Source of the DNA: Patescibacteria group bacterium
Lineage (GTDB): Bacteria > Patescibacteriota > Microgenomatia > Levybacterales > UBA12049
Direction: 5' to 3'
DNA length: 64,000 nucleotides
Assembly (NCBI GenBank): GCA_035946335.1
Contig: DASYZL010000006.1
Coordinates: forward strand, 175,664-239,663
Positions 25,917-39,880 of the stretch are shown piece after piece. Position numbers and translations under genes: made by a program. A model generated the notes under the pieces. The model was given only the letters and a program-made list of their open reading frames with translations. It was not told the origin of the DNA and made no database searches. The first letter of the stretch is position 1, and every line of letters starts with the position of its first letter.

Positions 25917-26206
25917 TCCGCGATAGCTCAATGGTAGAGCAGGAAGCTGTAAAAGTGCAGCTTCCAGAAGTAATTCTGGATGAAACATGGGGTGAATTCA
26001 GGGAAGCCAATACGGTAATCCTGAGCCAAATTTGGTGAATGGTATAAGAGTAACCAAAAAGGTGCAGAGACTAGAAGTGAGGAACCAATCCAATACGCTT
26101 CACAGCGCCCCACATCCTAAAAAGGATGATGATATAGTCCATGCTTTTTGGAAACAAAAAGGTTTGTGTAACTTCAAGGTTCTAGGTTCGAATCCTAGTC
26201 GCGGAG
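25917..26206 (+). tRNA. tRNA-Asn(GUU) interrupted by a group I intron; exons 25917..25950 and 26169..26206
   Basis: The spliced product folds as a cloverleaf. The 7-bp acceptor stem is TCCGCGA/TCGCGGA with U1-A72 and a G73 discriminator, both typical of bacterial tRNA-Asn. The D arm is GCTC/GAGC, the T arm is CTAGG-TTCGAAT-CCTAG, and the anticodon loop is CU-GUU-AA. Confidence 0.8.
25951..26168 (+). ncRNA. Group I self-splicing intron (IC3-like) inserted between anticodon positions 35 and 36
   Basis: P1 forms between the exon end AGCUGU and the internal guide GCAGCU, with a U-G pair at the splice site. The R element (GGTGCAGAGACTAGAAG) and S element (GATGATATAGTCC) form P7. A Q-like GAGCCAAA is present, a P9 hairpin (CTTTTTGGAAACAAAAAG) precedes the 3' splice site, and the intron ends in omega-G. 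Confidence 0.8.
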
Positions 26207-27391
26207 CAAAAAATCTCTTATTATAACCGCATGATTCTCTTGTAATACTGAGAAAATCGGAGTATAGACAATTTTAACAATCTTCTTATCTTGCACAATT
26301 AGCTTCTCAAAGAAGAACCGTAGGTAATGGCGTTTAAGGAATTTGGGAGCTTGTAAATATGTAGTATGGATATTTCTGGTAAATGCTAAAACCTCCTCGA
26401 TTAAGTTTACGTCCATATTTGCGCTATTTTCTATCTCCTGAATAAGATTGTTTAAGTTGGTAATCTTATCATTAACTTCTGTGTGCTTGCGTTGGTAGGC
26501 TTCTCTGTCTATTGTGCCGTCAATAACAGCATCTTCAAGTTTATTTCTTTTGATTTCTAATACTGTTTTTTGGTTAATAATACCTTGCTTTTGTGCATCA
26601 ATGGTCCTTCTGTTTTCTGCTACGACATCCTTTGCTTTCTGAACAACTATGTCTATAAATTCTGGGGTAAACTGCATTTTCTCTATTTCTTTTTCAACCT
26701 GTTTTTCCAATGCGTCTGCTTCAACGTAGAGGGCAGGACAGCCGTTTCTATCTCTCTTTTGGCAGTGGTAGTAGTGGATAATGCCTTTTCTCTCAAGAGA
26801 GTTAATCTTGTGCTTATCTGCGGTATATCTTTGACCGCAGTTGGAACAATACATAAACCCTCGCAAAAGGTAGTCATGGGTTCTTTTCCTGACAAGGAAA
26901 TCCCTATGTTTCGCTAAAACATACTGGCAGGTATCGAACAAATCCTTTGTAATAATTGGTGCGTGTTTGCCAATTCTAGACTCTCCATGCCAACGTATTA
27001 TGCCGTAGTAAAAGGGATTTTTGAGAATATTATTTATCACGCTATGTCCAATTATCGTACCAGTTCTTGAGAGTATATTTTTATCAGAAAGCCAATCTTG
27101 CAGTTCGAGAATACTGTGATTGCCAGTAGAATAAATCTCAAACATTTGTTTTATAACTGGTGCTACGTACGGGTCTGGTTCGCATGTTTTCTTTTGGTCT
27201 TCCTCTCCGACACTTCGATAGCCGATATATAAGGGGGACGGTTGCCATCCCTCTCTAAACTTTTGCGCTAAAGCATCTCTTGTTCGTTGTCCGTTTACTT
27301 CGGACTCCCATTCAGCGATAGAAGCCATTAGATTGCCAATTAGTCCGTCAGAAACATCACCTTCCTGAACAGACAGTAGTTTAATTGCCAT
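26195..27391 (-). CDS. Large serine recombinase (integrase), C-terminal segment (recombinase domain, zinc ribbon, coiled coil); out of frame with its N-terminal segment
   Basis: The alpha-E helix region, a Cys cluster (CSNCGQRY...CQKRDRNGC) and a coiled coil are present. The stop codon overlaps the tRNA 3' end. Confidence 0.75.
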   Translation of the reverse strand: MAIKLLSVQEGDVSDGLIGNLMASIAEWESEVNGQRTRDALAQKFREGWQPSPLYIGYRSVGEEDQKKTCEPDPYVAPVIKQMFEIYSTGNHSILELQDWLSDKNILSRTGTIIGHSVINNILKNPFYYGIIRWHGESRIGKHAPIITKDLFDTCQYVLAKHRDFLVRKRTHDYLLRGFMYCSNCGQRYTADKHKINSLERKGIIHYYHCQKRDRNGCPALYVEADALEKQVEKEIEKMQFTPEFIDIVVQKAKDVVAENRRTIDAQKQGIINQKTVLEIKRNKLEDAVIDGTIDREAYQRKHTEVNDKITNLNNLIQEIENSANMDVNLIEEVLAFTRNIHTTYLQAPKFLKRHYLRFFFEKLIVQDKKIVKIVYTPIFSVLQENHAVIIRDFLLRD

Positions 27392-29368: not shown

Positions 29369-30277
29369 CTATGCGTCAGCTATAAGGAGGTCTTTTTTGA
29401 AATTGCTGACTATGGTTCTCACATCGGAATCCGAGAGTTCATATATTTCTTTATCCTTTCTTGTGCTAATAATTTCTACAACTTTATCTTCATGAGATAG
29501 AGATGGAAGTTCTGCGAAATAATCTTCGTTTTCCTTTCTAAAATTTTCCAGTACTTCAGGGTCAGGTGCATTACTTAAAATATTGGCAATTTGCCGAGCG
29601 TTATAGCCTAAAGCATCAAATAAAAACACCTCAACCTCTCTTGTAAATGTTTTAACATTTCTTACTCTATCAATGGGATAGTCATCCAAATATTTTTGGA
29701 TGCCTATAATAGTTTTTTCATTCTTTCTGTAAAATTCTTCAATTCCTGTTGGGGTAGTATCCTTATATATCTGAATATATGCGAAGATTTTGTTATCTTT
29801 TTTTGTTTGGTTTATTCTTCCTCCACCCTGAATTACGATTCGTGCTTTATGCTTAAACTCCTCTTTGGCGACTATTTCCCTTGAATTGATACTTTCTATA
29901 TCTATACATGAGAAGTACAAATAGTCTAGTAAAAACATTCCATAGCTGAGCGGGTCGAGGTCAAACTCAGCGGATAATTCAATTATTAACTTATGAGATG
30001 GTTCTTTCGGAACATCTGGGATTCTTGCGTCTACCCAGTCCTCCCATGTTCCATCTGCTCCTACGTCATCTCTTAATTTCCCGTACCAATCTTGAGGGAT
30101 TTTGAGTTGTTCCCTCAGTTCTTTTATTCTATTTCGGAATCTTGTGTTGAATAAAAGCGGCAAAAGAGCTACATAAAATTCCTGGTCGCTATATGTTATT
30201 TCAGGGCCTATAAACGGTACAATATATAACAAGTCAAGAATATTTTGTCTTAATTCCTTATCTATTTGCTTTTTCAT
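29369..30277 (-). CDS. Hypothetical protein (302 aa), island-encoded
   Basis: Long ORF with no recognisable motifs. Confidence 0.45.
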   Translation of the reverse strand: MKKQIDKELRQNILDLLYIVPFIGPEITYSDQEFYVALLPLLFNTRFRNRIKELREQLKIPQDWYGKLRDDVGADGTWEDWVDARIPDVPKEPSHKLIIELSAEFDLDPLSYGMFLLDYLYFSCIDIESINSREIVAKEEFKHKARIVIQGGGRINQTKKDNKIFAYIQIYKDTTPTGIEEFYRKNEKTIIGIQKYLDDYPIDRVRNVKTFTREVEVFLFDALGYNARQIANILSNAPDPEVLENFRKENEDYFAELPSLSHEDKVVEIISTRKDKEIYELSDSDVRTIVSNFKKDLLIADA

Positions 30278-32066: not shown

Positions 32067-32189
32067 AAAGTGATTTTTATTATAATGTCTTTTATAGCCA
32101 ATGCAAGCCTTTTTACTTAATGAAACAGAAAAGAAAAATGACCGTTTTTTCTATATGGAGAAGCCATGCTTATTTGTTATACTACACGC

Positions 32190-32729
32190 ATGGCTGACGC
32201 ACGTTCGTATTTGGATACAAGTTTTTTATCGGCACTTATCAGAAGAAACATCCACGACCCATTAGAATTACAAGCGATTATCCGTATTCACTCATTTTGG
32301 GAGCAGGGTTTCATACAGTGTTATGTGAGTGAAGCAGTTAAGAAAGAATTAGAAAAAATACCAGCAAAGTACAAAACACAAAATGACAAATTAGCTGTGT
32401 TATATATGCTTTTGGAAAAAGCGGAGATGTTTCCTACACATCAGATGTTTACCTCTATGTTTGGTGGCGCACCTTTTGGGACAGTTCCTTTTGGTGGAGC
32501 TACGATAGCAAATGACCCGATTTTTCAACAACTATCTGCAATCTTTGATAGAGAAGATGCGGAGCATATTTTTCTTTGTATTAAAAATGGCATCCCATAC
32601 TTTTTGACATACGATGTCCGCACAATATTGAACCGAGCAAGGCAAAACAAAGCCCTTTTGAAAGGATTTGGTATTGAGATTCTTTCCCCGAGAGAATTTG
32701 AAGATACTGTTCTTTCAGGACAAAAATAG
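32190..32729 (+). CDS. PIN-domain protein (putative RNase/toxin)
   Basis: The acidic tetrad is placed as in PIN domains: YLDTSFL, SEAVKKE, DREDAEH and LTYDVRT. Confidence 0.5.
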   Translation: MADARSYLDTSFLSALIRRNIHDPLELQAIIRIHSFWEQGFIQCYVSEAVKKELEKIPAKYKTQNDKLAVLYMLLEKAEMFPTHQMFTSMFGGAPFGTVPFGGATIANDPIFQQLSAIFDREDAEHIFLCIKNGIPYFLTYDVRTILNRARQNKALLKGFGIEILSPREFEDTVLSGQK

Positions 32730-32739
32730 ATTAGTATGT

Positions 32740-33501
32740 ATGAAAAATATACCTCAAGAAAATTATATTATCGGCAAATGTATTTATTGCGGAACTGTTA
32801 ATGACTCGCTCTCCCGTGAACATATTGTCCCATACGGGCTTAATGGAGAATGGATTTTGCAAAAAGCAAGTTGTACTAGATGCTCTGATATTACCTCAAA
32901 ATTTGAACTAAGCGTACTAAAAGGATTATTACCTCAAGCTCGTGCCGCTCTGAAGTATCAAACCAGACATGGACATCCAAAAACTTTCCCTGTCAAGATG
33001 AAGATAGCGGGTCAATGGCAAAAATTTGATATAACTCCTGATGAGTATGGAGCAATTATACTATTTCCGTTATTTAGACAGCCTGCTTATCTGGATAATC
33101 GTTCTCCGTTACAAGGAACTTTGGATATTCTGGGTACTGGGATGCACAGGCTAGGTGGTACTGATATGAGTATTCTACACAAAAAATATAATGCTGAAAG
33201 CATTGATTTCAGATTTGAATTTGACCCAGGTGCTTTTCTTAAGCTGTTGGCAAAGGTGGCATACGGGTATGCAGTACTATACTACGGCTTGGATGTATTC
33301 GATAAAATATACGCACTCCCTATAATAATGGGACAAACTGACGAAGTTGACCGTTGGATTGGAAGTGAAAAATCTTCAATAGGAAATGAGGAGGTTTCTA
33401 TTGTTTTGCATCAGACAGGGAAAGACCTTATCGCAAAAATACGACTTTTTGGGAAACGAGAAGTCCCAACCTATATTGTTGTAGTGGGTTCAATAAAGTA
33501 A
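32740..33501 (+). CDS. HNH endonuclease family protein
   Basis: CIYCG...SREHIVPYGLNGEW...CTRC forms a CxxC...H...N...CxxC beta-beta-alpha-Me motif. It lies immediately downstream of the PIN gene. Confidence 0.65.
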   Translation: MKNIPQENYIIGKCIYCGTVNDSLSREHIVPYGLNGEWILQKASCTRCSDITSKFELSVLKGLLPQARAALKYQTRHGHPKTFPVKMKIAGQWQKFDITPDEYGAIILFPLFRQPAYLDNRSPLQGTLDILGTGMHRLGGTDMSILHKKYNAESIDFRFEFDPGAFLKLLAKVAYGYAVLYYGLDVFDKIYALPIIMGQTDEVDRWIGSEKSSIGNEEVSIVLHQTGKDLIAKIRLFGKREVPTYIVVVGSIK

Positions 33502-33642: not shown

Positions 33643-33870
33643 TCACTCAAGCAACTCAGACATTTTTACTCCTAAATATCGTGCAATTTTATCAAGCGTA
33701 GCTATTGATGGGTTTCGGACGCCTTGTTCGATAAAGCCAAGGTAAACAGGTGTTATCCCGATTTTCTCCGCCATTATTACTTGGGAAACATCCTTATCTT
33801 GTCTTAGCTGCTGTATTTTCTTTCCAACACTTTTTGGGATACGAGAATAATATTTTTTCCCTTTTGTCAT
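33643..33870 (-). CDS. XRE-family HTH transcriptional regulator
   Basis: QQLRQDKDVSQVIMAEKIGITPVYLGFIEQG HTH. Confidence 0.75.
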   Translation of the reverse strand: MTKGKKYYSRIPKSVGKKIQQLRQDKDVSQVIMAEKIGITPVYLGFIEQGVRNPSIATLDKIARYLGVKMSELLE

Positions 33871-34311: not shown

Positions 34312-35484
34312 CTAATTCAAGAAATTATTTCCTTTTCCTAAATTACATTTTTCGCAAAGCGTCTGCAAGTTTTCAAATATTGTTCTTCCGCCTTTTGAAA
34401 ATGGTACTTTATGGTCAATGTGTAGTCGGCATTGAGAATCTGTTGCTGGACTTGCTCCGCATTTCACACACTTGAAGTTATCTCTACTTAAAATTTTGTA
34501 CCGTAAACCGAGACCTACTTCTCTTTTTTCAACAATTAAAGTATTTGCTGTTTGTTTTATTATTTCTACAGTTTTTGTTGTTTTGGATTTAATGTCAGTG
34601 GGTTTTTCATGTTCTATAATTTCTTCAAATTCTTTTTCTTCTTGGTTCATTCTCACCACAAATGCCTCAAGTGCTTTACGCCAACTACCAAAATGTCCTT
34701 TATAAGTATTTGCTTTAATCTTTGATGGCTGAATGTCCATCTCTCCATACTTTGGTTGTCTTCCATAGCGTGTCCAAACAGTTAATAAATTCTCAAAATA
34801 TTCTTCGTCGGAATATGCCCGATTATATTTTTCAGAGATTTTTAATCCTGCTTTTTCCATAGCAGTAGCCCATGTACCAAATCGACGAGTTGCAACTCCC
34901 ACACTCATAACATTAGAGTAATGTCTTACATCTTCGTGGCTTACTGATTCCGTATTGAGCAACTTGGCAATTCTTTTTAGCTCATCAAGTACGTCTTGAT
35001 TTGTTAATGATTTTGCTTTTGGCTTACGCATGTTCTCTGTAATGATTGTTCCAGAATATTTATGACCAACACCTGCTTTTTCTAACGCTTGCTGCCATCC
35101 ACCAAAACGACTAATAAAAGTACCTGAGCTAATTTCACTATGTTGGTCAAAGTCCTTTCTTCTTATGACTTTCACATCAAGTGCTTCTGCAACTCTTTTT
35201 AATTCCTTGAGTACTTCTTGGTCTGTTAGCTGTTGCGCCTTTTGCAAGCGCATTTTATCTGTAATTTCTGTACCAATGTATTTATGTCCCAATCCAGCAG
35301 TAGTGAGTGCATTTTCCCAACTGCCAAATCTAAGTTTTACTCCGTCAGAACTCATTTTTGCGTGCTTGTTGTAATCAGTTTGAGTTAGCTTTTCCTTACC
35401 GACTAATACATCAACACGTTTTATTTCTGCAATAACATCTTCATCAGGGCAATTCCTCGGTAAATTGCTTAATTCAAATTTCAT
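34312..35484 (-). CDS. HNH endonuclease with four N-terminal homing-endonuclease-associated (HNH) repeats
   Basis: There are four repeats of about 60 aa (FGSWENALTTAGLGHKY / FGGWQQALEKAGVGHKY / FGTWATAMEKAGL / FGSWRKALEAF). The C-terminal core is CVKCG...HIDHKVPFSKGG...CEKCN. Confidence 0.75.
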   Translation of the reverse strand: MKFELSNLPRNCPDEDVIAEIKRVDVLVGKEKLTQTDYNKHAKMSSDGVKLRFGSWENALTTAGLGHKYIGTEITDKMRLQKAQQLTDQEVLKELKRVAEALDVKVIRRKDFDQHSEISSGTFISRFGGWQQALEKAGVGHKYSGTIITENMRKPKAKSLTNQDVLDELKRIAKLLNTESVSHEDVRHYSNVMSVGVATRRFGTWATAMEKAGLKISEKYNRAYSDEEYFENLLTVWTRYGRQPKYGEMDIQPSKIKANTYKGHFGSWRKALEAFVVRMNQEEKEFEEIIEHEKPTDIKSKTTKTVEIIKQTANTLIVEKREVGLGLRYKILSRDNFKCVKCGASPATDSQCRLHIDHKVPFSKGGRTIFENLQTLCEKCNLGKGNNFLN

Positions 35485-35561: not shown

Positions 35562-36359
35562 TTATTTTCTAAGAAGGTTAATCGAGGGTTTTCCTAACAT
35601 TGGAGTTAATTCACTAAAAGAACTGTCTAATGTTGTTACTGTAAGATGCTTCGGACAATCAGTAGCAATAACAACGTCTCCGATAGCTTTATTTATTGGA
35701 TATTTATTTGCGTTTTTCACATCTTTTTCAATTTCTACTAATTTTGCATATATCTTATTTATCACTTTTGATTTATCAAAGACGTCTTTATTTGAGAGTA
35801 ATTTTTTTAATTCTTCTATGTGTGCCTTCCAAAAAACATCTAATGGTATTGATTTTCGGCTATTGTAAGCATCAACAAACGGCTCGTAATCATCTTTACT
35901 TCTTAATTTGAATCTGACTATCTCATCTCCTGCAAAATCTCCCACCATGCTTAGTAAATCAGTATCAAAGTTATTAACTAAATTAAAAATTACTGCCTCT
36001 ATTTGCCTTAAATATTTTGCGGTATCTTGGGTAGGGATGGATTTGTTCACACTTGCCATTATTGCCTGTAAAATATGAATATTCTTTAATTCTCTTTTCC
36101 CGTACTTTTTAGACCACCAAGCCAAAGCAAGAGAAGGACTATCAAGAAGTTTCACACGATAATAAAATTCTACCATGTTTCTTATAAAGCCTGTCTTAAA
36201 TTCATAGAGGACAAAATGAGAGGAATATAAGACGCTATTTTGCGGTAACAATCTCAGGATACTCCCATCCTTATCAGGCACAAATTTGCTTATTTGAATG
36301 GATGTTTCTAGGAGTAATCGTGTGCTTTTATCAGTTTTCTTCTTTTTGTTTTTTGCCAT
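35562..36359 (-). CDS. Hypothetical protein (265 aa), third gene of a three-gene operon
   Basis: Overlaps the upstream gene by 29 nt. No recognisable motif. Confidence 0.45.
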   Translation of the reverse strand: MAKNKKKKTDKSTRLLLETSIQISKFVPDKDGSILRLLPQNSVLYSSHFVLYEFKTGFIRNMVEFYYRVKLLDSPSLALAWWSKKYGKRELKNIHILQAIMASVNKSIPTQDTAKYLRQIEAVIFNLVNNFDTDLLSMVGDFAGDEIVRFKLRSKDDYEPFVDAYNSRKSIPLDVFWKAHIEELKKLLSNKDVFDKSKVINKIYAKLVEIEKDVKNANKYPINKAIGDVVIATDCPKHLTVTTLDSSFSELTPMLGKPSINLLRK

Positions 36360-36912
36360 GATTATTAGTGCCTTTCAACAAATACATTTTCTTCCTATAC
36401 AGTTGCTTTGAGAACATTGATAGACCATCCCAATTTACTTCACCCTCATTAAACCTCTTTAACTCTGTTTGGAAATATTTAATGTCTTTTTTATCCATTG
36501 TTTCCCAGTTATTATTCTCAAATAGTAATTCGAGCATGGATAATAAAATCCTTGTCTCTGATTTTTGGGTTAAATAATCAGCGTTTTCTTGTAGTAAGTC
36601 TTTGATATTACTGATATGTGCCAATGCGTCTTCTGTCTCCAAATTTTCCCAGGCAGAAAGTTCGTCATTTATCTTTTTTATTAAGGCATAGGTATTGTAG
36701 GAGATGTAATTACTAGAGTAATTTGTTCTGTAATATATGTTATTGTCTCCGTTTTCGCCAATCGAATGTATCGCAGGGTTTTGTGAAGAAATTTTTGTCA
36801 TTTCGTCAACATCCTTCTCAGGTGCTTTAGGCAAATATTGAGAATTGTCCTTAAAGTATTCCTCTAAGTTTACTGCTGTTTGTTGAAAAGTATATGAAGA
36901 TGCTATGCTCAT
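36331..36912 (-). CDS. Hypothetical protein (193 aa), second gene of a three-gene operon
   Basis: Overlaps the upstream gene by 4 nt (ATGA coupling). Confidence 0.45.
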   Translation of the reverse strand: MSIASSYTFQQTAVNLEEYFKDNSQYLPKAPEKDVDEMTKISSQNPAIHSIGENGDNNIYYRTNYSSNYISYNTYALIKKINDELSAWENLETEDALAHISNIKDLLQENADYLTQKSETRILLSMLELLFENNNWETMDKKDIKYFQTELKRFNEGEVNWDGLSMFSKQLYRKKMYLLKGTNNHGKKQKEEN

Positions 36913-37616
36913 AATGTTTGAATATAACCAAGATAATCTTTTGTTACTCGTAAATTTTCTTTAATTGCTTTGTCTAATTTTTCTAATGTGTTTTCGGCAG
37001 TGAGTCCACCCTCAATAAATATTGACACATCAATAAACAGATTACTGTCTTTAATATCTGTTTTATTATCTGGATAACTGCTATTAAAAGCCTTGATACC
37101 TTGGTCTTTCTTTACTGGCCCTATTTGCACATGATTAAGAAAACCATTTTTTGAGCCATCCAATACAAAAACAGAATCTCTTGGTGTATCTGCTGATATA
37201 TTTTTTACATCTTCATTTTGTGCGTAGAATTTTTTATATATTAATTCTACAAGTTCATTAAATTCAAAACTTGCTTCAAGAACTTGAGTGTGTCTCACTT
37301 CAAGTCTTCGGATTTGATTAACGCCAAGTTCTTTTGTGCTTTTGGTAAATATCTTGCTAATATAGTCATATAGTTCTTTAGTATCGTTCTTTCCTTCGTT
37401 CAAATAGGTAATAGTATCGAAAGTAATTTGTAAGATTTTCTTTTCGGAGGGAGAGTATAATGCAATATCTTCGTGTTTTTGTGCCGCCCATTCTTCAAAC
37501 TTATCTTCAACACCTGCGGCAAGAGAAGCGGTGCTATCAAATGTTTTAATTGTAGGACGGAATTTCACTTGTCCTACGATTCGATGTAGTTTTTCCGTTA
37601 AAAAGGTTTTAGCCAT
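36909..37616 (-). CDS. Hypothetical protein (235 aa), first gene of a three-gene operon
   Basis: Preceded by a perfect TATAAT -10 box. Confidence 0.45.
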   Translation of the reverse strand: MAKTFLTEKLHRIVGQVKFRPTIKTFDSTASLAAGVEDKFEEWAAQKHEDIALYSPSEKKILQITFDTITYLNEGKNDTKELYDYISKIFTKSTKELGVNQIRRLEVRHTQVLEASFEFNELVELIYKKFYAQNEDVKNISADTPRDSVFVLDGSKNGFLNHVQIGPVKKDQGIKAFNSSYPDNKTDIKDSNLFIDVSIFIEGGLTAENTLEKLDKAIKENLRVTKDYLGYIQTL

Positions 37617-37699
37617 ATCTATCTCAATCTAGGTCGCTATTATACCCCAATCAGCTTCAAAAGTAAAAAATACAATGATGCTCTACATATAATCTATCA

Positions 37700-38175
37700 T
37701 AATTTGTAAAAAACAAGATAGTAAGGTTTAATTATTTTTCTCCGACCTGCCGTACAGCTCCTAGCGCTTTATTTAGCGTTCGTTTCTGCTGAACTGATAT
37801 AAAGAGATAGTTCTTGATTTTTCTACTGTCCTGAGCTAAATGGCTGTTTTTATCTCAAAAGTATAACCGTTAGACTTTCTTCGCAAGAAGGTTATAGAAA
37901 ATCCTCATATAATTTCCAATGTAGCAATATTAACTTACCAGCCTCAAATTTACGGTTGATAGGTATGTCCACCTCTGCACCATAGTCCCTAACCTACACT
38001 CCTAGCCTCCTCTCTACGATACATATAAGAGATATTTTTTGGCAGATGCTTGGCTATCTTCCCTGTATGTATCGTAATATAGGCATGAAGCAGTGAATTA
38101 GAGGCTAGGGAGGTCATACATACCAGCCGTTCTTTTGTGCCTGAAATTTTATTTTAGTTACATTGTCAAAGAACA
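37700..38175. other. ORF-free structured region of about 480 bp (candidate ncRNA or replication origin)
   Basis: Nested long-range inverted repeats CCTAGCCTCC...GGAGGCTAGG and CGATACATA...TATGTATCG, plus a GNRA-capped hairpin TATAACC...CTTCgcaaGAAG...GGTTATA. Confidence 0.4.
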
Positions 38176-39543
38176 TTATTCATTATCCTGTGCTTCAAGG
38201 CAAGTCGGGATACCAAGTTCATCAATCGTTTGCTGTGCGGTTGAAATAATCATGTTCTTCCAGTACTGCTTTGACTCTTTTTGTGCAAACTGTACAGAGA
38301 AGCCGTCATGTTGCCATAGAACTATTTTGAAGGTACGCTTGCTTTTGTTCTGAATGGCGAGGTCAATCACGTCTGCCAGCAGTAGCATTTCCATAGACTG
38401 GGCGAGTTGGGCTAAAATGCTTCTGTGCGAGAAATCCTTGAGAGACAAGAATCTTCCGTAGCAATCAGTTGCACCGCCATTACCAGACATTTTGCTGAAT
38501 TGTTCAGTACGAGCCTTCCACATGAAATTGATAATCGGGTGGGAAATAAAGCGGTTAAAAGAATTATCACCAATCGGGGAGAGGATTTCTTTAATCTTTT
38601 TTTGTCCTGCTCCGTACATCATAGCATACAGACTTCTTTTGAATATTTCTTTTGTTTTGTCGTTTAGTTCAATCCCAAAAGTTGTAAATAAATCTTTCCA
38701 AATAGAATTGCCTTCTTTGAGATAGTGTTCTACCTCTGGAATAGTCCACAATTTAGAAGCGATTGCCAACTGGCATGATTTCAAATCAAATTCTGTCCAG
38801 CCTTTAGTTAGGGCGTGGCGTATATCCCTCTGCAAATAACAAATATTTTCGCTGAATGGATATATCCTTACTGATTTTTTTACAGGAGCGTAAAGAGGCT
38901 TGTATTCGTCTTGAATGGCTCTAAGCAAATCGAGTTGATTGTCGGCATCCTCTTGTTGGAGTGCGACTGCTTTTGCCTTTGGCATATTGACCATCATTTC
39001 TTGAAAAGTGCGGACTGGGAGGTTGTTCATATACGCAATAATCTCTTTTGCGCTCTGAACACCCGCATTACTCATTTGCTTCATCGCTTCCTTGTAATTC
39101 AAGTCTCGGAGCTGTTGCTGTTTATACTGAGTAAATGGTTCTCCATCTCTCAAATATACTCTGCCTGTATTTTCCCATAGGCCCTGTCGTTCATTGGCTA
39201 TTGCCTCAAGAACTTCTGCATCCCAACGGCATGTTTTAACGACCCTGCATCTGCCTTCGATATAAGAATAATCCGACCACTCGAAATGATGTACGTTACG
39301 GGAAAACTCAATAAGAAAATCAATCGAGCGATAGTTTTTGTTCTCAATCATGTAATATTTTCCTTCGCATTGTGCGATTAACTCCCAAGGAATTTTTACA
39401 TACCCTGTTTCCCACTCACGAAAACCGAATATAAGATGTCCGATAAAATTCCAGTACGCAGGGTTATTCCCCAGCGTAGGAAAATTTCGTTTGAGTATGT
39501 CCCGAAACATAGGCGAGACCGTCCTATTGGTTATTATCATCAT
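38176..39543 (-). CDS. Family A (T7-like) DNA polymerase-like protein, polymerase domain only; motif A E to Q, motif C HDE to HDG
   Basis: Motif A EFDLKSCQLAIASKL (T7: DASGLELRCLAHF). Motif B KRSLYAMMYGAGQKKI (T7: KTFIYGFLYGAGDEKI). Motif C VLWQHDGFSV (T7: AWVHDEIQV). No exonuclease domain. Start taken at MMIITN. Confidence 0.5.
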   Translation of the reverse strand: MMIITNRTVSPMFRDILKRNFPTLGNNPAYWNFIGHLIFGFREWETGYVKIPWELIAQCEGKYYMIENKNYRSIDFLIEFSRNVHHFEWSDYSYIEGRCRVVKTCRWDAEVLEAIANERQGLWENTGRVYLRDGEPFTQYKQQQLRDLNYKEAMKQMSNAGVQSAKEIIAYMNNLPVRTFQEMMVNMPKAKAVALQQEDADNQLDLLRAIQDEYKPLYAPVKKSVRIYPFSENICYLQRDIRHALTKGWTEFDLKSCQLAIASKLWTIPEVEHYLKEGNSIWKDLFTTFGIELNDKTKEIFKRSLYAMMYGAGQKKIKEILSPIGDNSFNRFISHPIINFMWKARTEQFSKMSGNGGATDCYGRFLSLKDFSHRSILAQLAQSMEMLLLADVIDLAIQNKSKRTFKIVLWQHDGFSVQFAQKESKQYWKNMIISTAQQTIDELGIPTCLEAQDNE

Positions 39544-39880
39544 GGCACTTCTGGAAAAATGAAGGTGGCAGTGCCATGACACGCAGAACACTAACGCACG
39601 TATAAAAAACCTTTGGGTTTTTCGGTAGTCTCGATTTCTATGTGGATTTAGTAGTTTCTATTTTTATTTCGATTTGCTACACTGCCAACATGACTGCTGG
39701 ATGGTTAATTTGCAATTTTTTAATCTCAAGCCATCGTTGCCTGAGTTCGCCAATGTACCGTAAATCCTGAAATGCCTGAATGATTGAGGTAAAATCTATA
39801 GTTAGAGTGAGCCAAGGCTGGGGGAGCAAATTAGTCCTGTAGTTTTATTCTAATTTTGTTTACTTCAAATATCCTCTTTT

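Follow-up and report, generated by a model that had tools for sequence, protein, structure and literature searches.

Toxin-antitoxin (TA) systems with a third component are known in the omega-epsilon-zeta, paaR-paaA-parE and toxin-antitoxin-chaperone systems, and in the RNase P called HARP an inserted helical domain positions the pre-tRNA. HARP has been described as a PIN-like domain with an inserted helical (spike-helix) domain (PMC8266387). Domains with a TBP-like fold recur among nucleases: they are found fused in RNase LS and RNase HIII (PMC3710099), are required for substrate binding in RnlA (PMC8266594), and are fused, as putative sensors, to about 1.5% of the bacterial Schlafen defence nucleases (PMC13056530). 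Here we describe a cassette of three genes, designated A, B and C, located in a window of 64,000 nucleotides (the whole stretch of DNA that was analysed, from contig DASYZL010000006.1), which is part of a 239.8-kb contig of a Patescibacteria (candidate phyla radiation, CPR) metagenome-assembled genome (MAG). In the way it would work, the cassette comes closest to a VapBC-type module to which a third component has been added, and we put the probability that it represents a self-contained, mobile, tripartite toxin-antitoxin-like module at about 0.5. Its features are the following:

36909..37616, minus strand: gene A, open reading frame (ORF) of 235 amino acids (aa)
36331..36912, minus strand: gene B, ORF of 193 aa
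35562..36359, minus strand: gene C, ORF of 265 aa
37639..37667, minus strand: promoter-like site TTTACT-17-TATAAT, found by consensus scan (10/12 matches) and a consensus match only

Relation to described toxin-antitoxin systems

The likeness to VapBC is found at several levels. Protein C combines a putative PIN-like fold with four conserved acidic residues, including those of a GD.VIA helix and a (T/L)D..F strand; the acidic partner gene B lies immediately upstream of C and overlaps it, which results in the bicistronic, coupled order of a candidate antitoxin before a candidate toxin; and the spread of the genes is mobile and patchy, with relatives of C located beside plasmid partition genes. 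The cassette differs from VapBC in that C has twice the size of VapC, due to a mostly helical insertion of approximately 165 aa, and stays under the threshold of every PIN hidden Markov model (HMM), in that B lacks an RHH, AbrB, PhD or HTH domain, and in that a larger, highly conserved gene with a TBP fold, A, is always present upstream of B.

With the tripartite TA systems (omega-epsilon-zeta, paaR-paaA-parE, pasABC and toxin-antitoxin-chaperone) the trio shares its tight coupling and the order accessory or regulator, antitoxin, toxin, but none of its components is homologous to theirs, and the role of A as a regulator or chaperone is one that we infer. The anti-phage TA systems RnlAB and LsoAB resemble the proposed module in being mobile and in combining a TBP-like fold with an RNase and a protein dedicated to its inhibition. 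The toxin RnlA, however, carries its TBP-like domains in the same polypeptide, whereas the TBP-fold protein of the trio is separate and acidic; the nuclease of RnlA is of the HEPN type instead of PIN, and there is no sequence relationship to the trio. Since the nuclease is of a different type, the trio is not a relative of RnlAB.

General features of the cassette

A preliminary description of the locus, made from the sequence alone, had reported three minus-strand ORFs of these lengths with overlapping stop and start codons behind a TATAAT box, and all of this was recovered, the ORFs at exactly the same coordinates. The stop codon of A overlaps the start codon of B via an ATGA (...cattATGAgc), and B and C overlap by 29 nt. 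The box forms part of the TTTACT-17-TATAAT site, 22 nt upstream of the ATG of gene A; as the number of promoter-like sites in this AT-rich stretch is no higher than expected (8 versus 11.5), the box by itself proves nothing on function. The encoded proteins have been deposited as hypothetical proteins HEV2339642-44. Each is full length when compared with its homologs, and the proportion of non-synonymous differences (pN) is far below that of synonymous differences (pS) for all three (in the closer pairs, 0.15-0.31 versus 0.63-0.84): the three are real genes under purifying selection. Together they form a self-contained cassette of 2.05 kb with a marked charge pattern, C being basic and both A and B acidic.

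Conserved co-occurrence and patchy distribution

The DNA surrounding the relatives of the three proteins was fetched, and each locus (designated L001 and so on) was scanned with HMMs built from our own alignments. In 20 out of 20 loci with enough sequence the genes A, B and C are found in the same order, overlapping or nearly abutting, so that the co-occurrence that had been proposed as a check on the module holds throughout. In the other loci, B and C overlap by up to 50 nt or are separated by up to 2 nt, and the loci without one of the components are five contigs cut at an end (L010, L012, L019, L020 and L023).

In one locus (L015, 2172-2703) a single-nucleotide shift within an A-run splits gene B across two frames; A and C are intact, and C keeps all its catalytic motifs. 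Either this copy is naturally defective in B, or the shift stems from an error in the assembly.

Among 5.8 billion protein clusters, homologs (clusters at 90% identity) number 8 for A, 4 for B and 16 for C. The relatives come from three or more bacterial lineages, as they are found in the Patescibacteria, in a MAG of the Gammaproteobacteria and in one of the Bdellovibrionales, the latter carrying C. The neighbourhoods of the trio loci are unrelated to one another: the trio is found next to type II restriction-modification (R-M) genes and DUF4238 (L001), Mrr and a methyltransferase (L008), LigD (L007), a ParE toxin pair and ORFans (L016), or, in the Gammaproteobacteria MAG (L009, CAZPPI010000001.1), two large serine recombinases, Schlafen AlbA_2 and Rep. 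The cassette is clearly accessory and horizontally mobile, and the R-M genes, Mrr, Schlafen, ParE and serine recombinases near the trio are the contexts that we count in favour of a TA-like module.

In L009 (2117-11934) the trio lies between the two large serine recombinase genes and is directly followed by a 115-aa ORF and the Schlafen AlbA_2 gene, and a Rep (ORF2/G2P-like) gene is located close to it. This locus looks like a compact mobile element with defence-type cargo.

That the trio consists of remnants of structural or replication genes from a phage or another mobile element is a very improbable explanation. It could explain why the genes share an integrated island with recombinases and HNH genes of the homing type, and why a Rep-like gene is found near the trio in L009; but the three genes are intact and under purifying selection, and the trio is also present in loci away from mobile-element genes. 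Homology to phage structural or replication proteins, which the preliminary description had named as evidence against a module, was not found for A, B or C among the PHROG models, nor for A or C among the 2.9 million viral contigs of IMG/VR, nor as a fold match for C in BFVD. A phage origin of the trio was rejected on the IMG/VR and BFVD results. Searches with HMM profiles, which had been suggested as well, gave no match to full-length A, B or C in Pfam or NCBIfam, in line with the PHROG result.

Protein C, a candidate PIN-like effector

The AlphaFold2 model of C, built with 16 homologs, has a predicted local distance difference test score (pLDDT) of 90 and a predicted template modelling score (pTM) of 0.88. 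Residues 14-17, 43-47, 137-139, 240-243 and 259-261 form strands, and the stretch from about residue 60 to residue 222 forms a helical block; in the model the core is interrupted by the mostly helical insertion of approximately 165 aa. When the model was compared with the PDB using Foldseek, the top matches were mainly PIN nucleases, comprising HARP RNase P (7og5, 7e8k and 7e8j, E 0.24-0.7), VapC (5ecw and 5ecd, TM-score 0.54-0.56 normalised to the target), PH0500, PAE0151, Nmd4 and SMG6, all of them at E >= 0.24; KslB, an unrelated enzyme, is also among the recurring matches. Both ends of C are covered by the alignments, the pattern that is expected of a PIN core with a large insertion.

Across the 16 aligned sequences of the trio family, C carries an acidic quartet formed by E/D18, E53, D228 and D245; the last three are invariant, and at position 18 every sequence has either E or D. 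The quartet is carried by the PIN-typical motifs LL(E/D)TS, YEF, GD(A/V)VIA and (T/L)D.SF, so that the four conserved acidic residues that characterise PIN domains are present at the level of sequence conservation. The statement of the preliminary description that no catalytic motifs are recognisable in any of the three proteins therefore does not hold for C. Local alignments of C with PIN proteins obtained by hhalign are in register on motifs 1, 2 and 4, and PIN is the sole Pfam family that is matched by more than one of the spliced C cores. In addition, C is strongly basic, with an isoelectric point (pI) of 8.5-9.6. As the fold matches and the motifs are accompanied by sequence statistics that are not significant, we call C PIN-like and nothing firmer; this designation is probably correct.

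The best fold match of C is HARP RNase P, with which it would have in common a PIN-like metallonuclease domain split by an inserted helical domain. The match is weak (best E 0.24), and the differences are considerable: HARP has about 190 aa (PIN_5) and a two-helix insertion, compared with 265 aa and an insertion about four times larger in C, and it works as a standalone homo-dodecamer with an essential job, pre-tRNA 5' processing, whereas C is always found with A and B and in accessory regions. Given its different size, insertion, partners and context, C is not a HARP.

The resemblance nevertheless bears on the view that the trio is a non-toxic RNA-processing or RNA-repair complex without any TA logic, in which C would act on structured RNA as an endonuclease like HARP, A would hold the RNA substrate by means of its TBP-like fold, and B would serve as a scaffold. 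The top fold matches of C, to a PIN-like RNase P with an inserted helical domain, would fit such a complex, as would the substrate-binding role of TBP-like domains in RNase HIII and RnlA and the location of several loci amid translation genes (IF3, L35, L20, SmpB and EF-P). We consider it unlikely: the cassette is extremely rare, patchy and cross-phyla, and is located in islands beside recombinases, which makes it ill-suited to a housekeeping role; moreover, A is acidic, the neighbourhood is different in every locus, and relatives of C adjoin plasmid partition genes.

Relatives of C on cyanobacterial plasmids

Distant, full-length homologs of C, with about 25% identity, were found on eight plasmids of Nostocales (hhalign probability 98.5%, E 1.5e-15), and the acidic quartet is retained in seven of these distant cyanobacterial homologs. 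In six of the seven Nostocales loci inspected (L025-L031) the C-like gene is preceded by a coupled gene encoding 136 aa, and in the seventh the upstream region is cut off by the start of the record. An example of this two-gene module is:

NC_003267.1, plasmid pCC7120gamma of Nostoc PCC 7120, 1569-2840: gene for a 136-aa protein followed by a gene for a C-like protein of approximately 284 aa

Both genes of the module are annotated as hypothetical. Five of the modules adjoin parA or parAB, and five adjoin an integrase (tyrosine). A position beside plasmid partition genes is classic for addiction modules, and the Nostocales two-gene module, which is uncharacterised and has culturable cyanobacteria as hosts, probably serves in plasmid addiction. 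A literature search on the Nostoc plasmid genes of this module found nothing relevant.

Protein B, a candidate inhibitor

The N-terminal half of protein B is acidic (pI 4.6-5.4), variable (column identity 0.40) and probably disordered, and the C-terminal part forms a conserved domain (column identity 0.62) with a length of about 110 aa. It evolves fastest, with the highest pN of the three genes. Profile searches with B gave no match in the PDB, Pfam, NCBIfam, PADLOC or PHROG. B is translated just before C from an overlapping gene, is acidic, is variable over half of its length and is the fastest-evolving of the trio, and is therefore a likely inhibitor of C.

Protein A, a TBP-fold protein and likely third component

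The AlphaFold2 model of A (pLDDT 82, pTM 0.82) shows an order of secondary-structure elements that fits two tandem S1-H1-S2-S3-S4-S5-H2 repeats, as is characteristic of the TBP-like fold. Comparison with the PDB by Foldseek gave 22 matches at E <= 1e-3, nearly all of them TBPs (best E 2e-5, probability 1.0); with TM-scores of 0.28-0.42 and a root mean square deviation of about 10 A, the fold class agrees and the geometry differs. A sequence-profile search of the PDB with A returned chance matches only. A is an acidic protein (pI 5.0-6.3), and its model has a TBP-like, pseudo-dimeric fold. Structure prediction followed by Foldseek, a route already proposed in the preliminary description, was carried out for A and C and thus pointed to TBPs for the former and to PIN nucleases for the latter.

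An exhaustive profile search of 1.84 billion representatives recovered 339 relatives of A at E <= 1e-3, almost all of them standalone proteins of 225-255 aa. The superfamily of A overlaps the NCBIfam family TIGR04255, which is matched at E <= 0.01 by 8 out of 65 distant relatives (best E 3.2e-6). A itself has no match to this model or to any other in NCBIfam, and the family, for which a literature search found no paper naming it, is uncharacterised and sporadically distributed. Judged from these comparisons, A is a divergent relative of the TIGR04255 superfamily and not a member of the family. The 65 distant relatives gave no match in Pfam and a single, spurious pAgo match in PADLOC (E 0.0057), and a tblastn search of plasmids with A and two of its distant relatives gave none.

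A is the most conserved of the three proteins, with a mean column identity of 64%. Its invariant polar residues comprise R12, Q16, R20, E41, D67, N73, E74 and R104 as well as R108, K129, D147, D153, K156, H162 and D196; D147, D196, D198 and R108 are also nearly invariant across the wider superfamily. This conservation is what lends some support to the view that A is the key enzyme of the trio, which would then represent a nucleotide- or metabolite-modifying pathway or a signalling system, the PIN look of C being misleading or C being inactive. TBP-like folds do include enzymes, such as AdoMet decarboxylase, which is also among the Foldseek matches of A, and the PIN statistics for C are not significant. 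But the acidic quartet of C is invariant in the trio family and kept in the distant cyanobacterial branch, which argues that C is active; A matches no enzyme family; and relatives of C are found in two-gene plasmid modules without A. An enzymatic role for A at the centre of the trio is thus unlikely.

Proposed mechanism

In a tripartite TA-like module, C would be the effector (toxin), a metal-dependent, PIN-like RNase with a catalytic core that is split by the helical insertion. The insertion may select structured RNA, by analogy with the spike-helix domain of HARP; as the layout of C resembles that of HARP RNase P, the likeliest substrates of C are tRNA, rRNA or other structured RNA. B would be the cognate inhibitor (antitoxin), or an adaptor, that keeps C inactive, and A would be a third component that senses a trigger, binds a ligand or regulates the B-C pair. 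When a phage infects the cell or the element is lost, the inhibition would be lifted, and RNA cleavage by C would then arrest growth. The co-occurrence and the structural evidence for the trio are solid, and for its mechanism we infer the nuclease activity of C, an RNA substrate, the action of B as inhibitor and of A as sensor or regulator, and a benefit in defence or addiction.

A number of observations weigh against a TA-like module with a PIN-like effector. The model of C matches nothing in the PDB significantly (best E 0.24), and its spliced cores reach the Pfam family PF01850 at best with E 0.078-0.12, in 3 out of 15 members. Sequence-profile searches of the PDB with C and with the spliced core found no PIN domain and chance matches only, and hhalign of C against six genuine plasmid PIN proteins gave a non-significant E of approximately 0.1; no significant PIN profile match, either to PF01850 and its clan or profile-profile, was obtained for C. 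For B, searches of Pfam, NCBIfam and the PDB revealed no RHH, AbrB, PhD or HTH DNA-binding or antitoxin domain. B shares an F.N.W motif with the cyanobacterial 136-aa partner, but with an hhalign E of 0.25 the homology of the two proteins is not claimed. A is acidic, unlike the DNA-binding TBPs, and its invariant polar residues could equally indicate an enzyme. Finally, A, B and C have no match at E <= 0.1 in PADLOC-DB 2.0, and about half of the neighbourhoods are plain housekeeping (IF3/L35/L20/SmpB/FtsH, MurJ, aminotransferase).

The suggestion that the locus encodes an anti-phage or addiction module, with which the preliminary description had started, therefore stands in part: the accessory and mobile nature of the cassette and its composition fit, whereas the lack of a match to the known defence families of PADLOC and the housekeeping contexts of about half of the loci speak on the other side. 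An anti-phage role of the trio is plausible. A more specific version, which is possible but clearly tentative, is a tripartite abortive-infection system not described before, in which A, as a protein of the TIGR04255 superfamily, would sense a phage nucleic acid or protein and, via B as an adaptor, would free a split-PIN RNase acting on tRNA or rRNA. The TIGR04255 superfamily would thereby obtain its first function, and C would define a new subfamily of PIN proteins in which a large insertion selects the substrate.

Should the trio be a tripartite TA-like module, it would represent a new PIN-toxin architecture, in which a large insertion splits the PIN core and a protein with a TBP fold is added as third component, and it would provide a first functional handle on the TIGR04255 superfamily, with its 339 representative clusters in metagenomes. 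The small genomes of Patescibacteria are thought to hold few defences, and the trio is one of the few candidate conflict systems found in them; a literature search for similar systems in this group found nothing relevant. The cassette is rare, uncharacterised and cross-phylum, and PIN toxins carried by mobile islands are a familiar general theme. As the cassette is compact and self-contained and has relatives on plasmids of culturable Nostoc and Anabaena, it is directly testable.

The surrounding island

The trio is located in a region of the window, covering approximately 27-38 kb, where the GC content falls from 0.40-0.44 to 0.33-0.37. The following genes and ORFs are found in or near this region:

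26195-27391, minus strand: large serine recombinase gene, directly after a split tRNA gene
29369-30277, minus strand: 302-aa ORF at the edge of the island
32166-32729, plus strand: weak PIN_3-like ORF (E 4.5e-4, under the Pfam cut-off)
32668-33501, plus strand: HNH_5-like ORF (E 8e-5, under the Pfam cut-off), overlapping the PIN_3-like ORF
33643-33870, minus strand: HTH_3 gene, after the HNH_5-like ORF
34312-35484, minus strand: HNH endonuclease gene with four HNH_repeat units (PF18780 'homing endonuclease associated repeat', E 2e-49)
38176-39591, minus strand: 471-aa ORF, labelled polymerase-like in the preliminary description

ARAGORN recognised no tRNA in the intact window. A group I intron (Rfam RF00028, 107 bits) at 25941-26161 splits a tRNA gene located at about 25917-26208 on the plus strand, and upon removal of the intron in silico ARAGORN recognises a tRNA starting at 25917. 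The split tRNA gene, the adjoining serine recombinase and the drop in GC content together indicate that the tRNA-associated island in which the trio had initially been placed is real. A repeat of the tRNA 3' end (att), searched to delimit the island, was not found, and its far end is unmarked. Most of the N-terminal catalytic domain of the serine recombinase (26195-27391) is without a match, and the gene may be truncated. A resolvase is also present among the genes flanking the trio.

On the upstream side, the preliminary description had tied a large, structured non-coding region and a polymerase-like gene to the module, a link that did not survive closer inspection. The 560-nt spacer (37617-38175) has an unremarkable folding z-score of -1.73, and an Rfam scan of the whole window matched only the group I intron, away from the trio, and nothing in this spacer. 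Neither the spacer nor the polymerase-like gene is conserved next to the trio in any other locus; they are thus neighbours and were discarded as parts of the module. The 471-aa ORF has no match in Pfam, NCBIfam, PADLOC, the PDB sequences or a tblastn search of phages, and its exact sequence is absent from the protein collection searched; by eye, it shows putative family-A-polymerase-like motifs (DLKSCQLAI, KRSLYAMMYGAG and WQHDG). At the edge of the island, the 302-aa ORF (29369-30277) is a singleton cluster at 90% identity, without a match in Pfam, NCBIfam, PADLOC or PHROGs.

On the downstream side, the HNH and PIN genes described earlier as flanking the module were all retrieved, in the form of the HNH endonuclease with four repeats, the HNH_5-like ORF and the weak PIN_3-like ORF. 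The HNH endonuclease gene (34312-35484) sits 77 nt downstream of gene C and is not kept next to the trio in other loci. A second member of its 90%-identity cluster is present on other short contigs, which suggests that it is a mobile, homing-type gene. The PIN_3-like and HNH_5-like pair may represent a second small conflict module of the same island.

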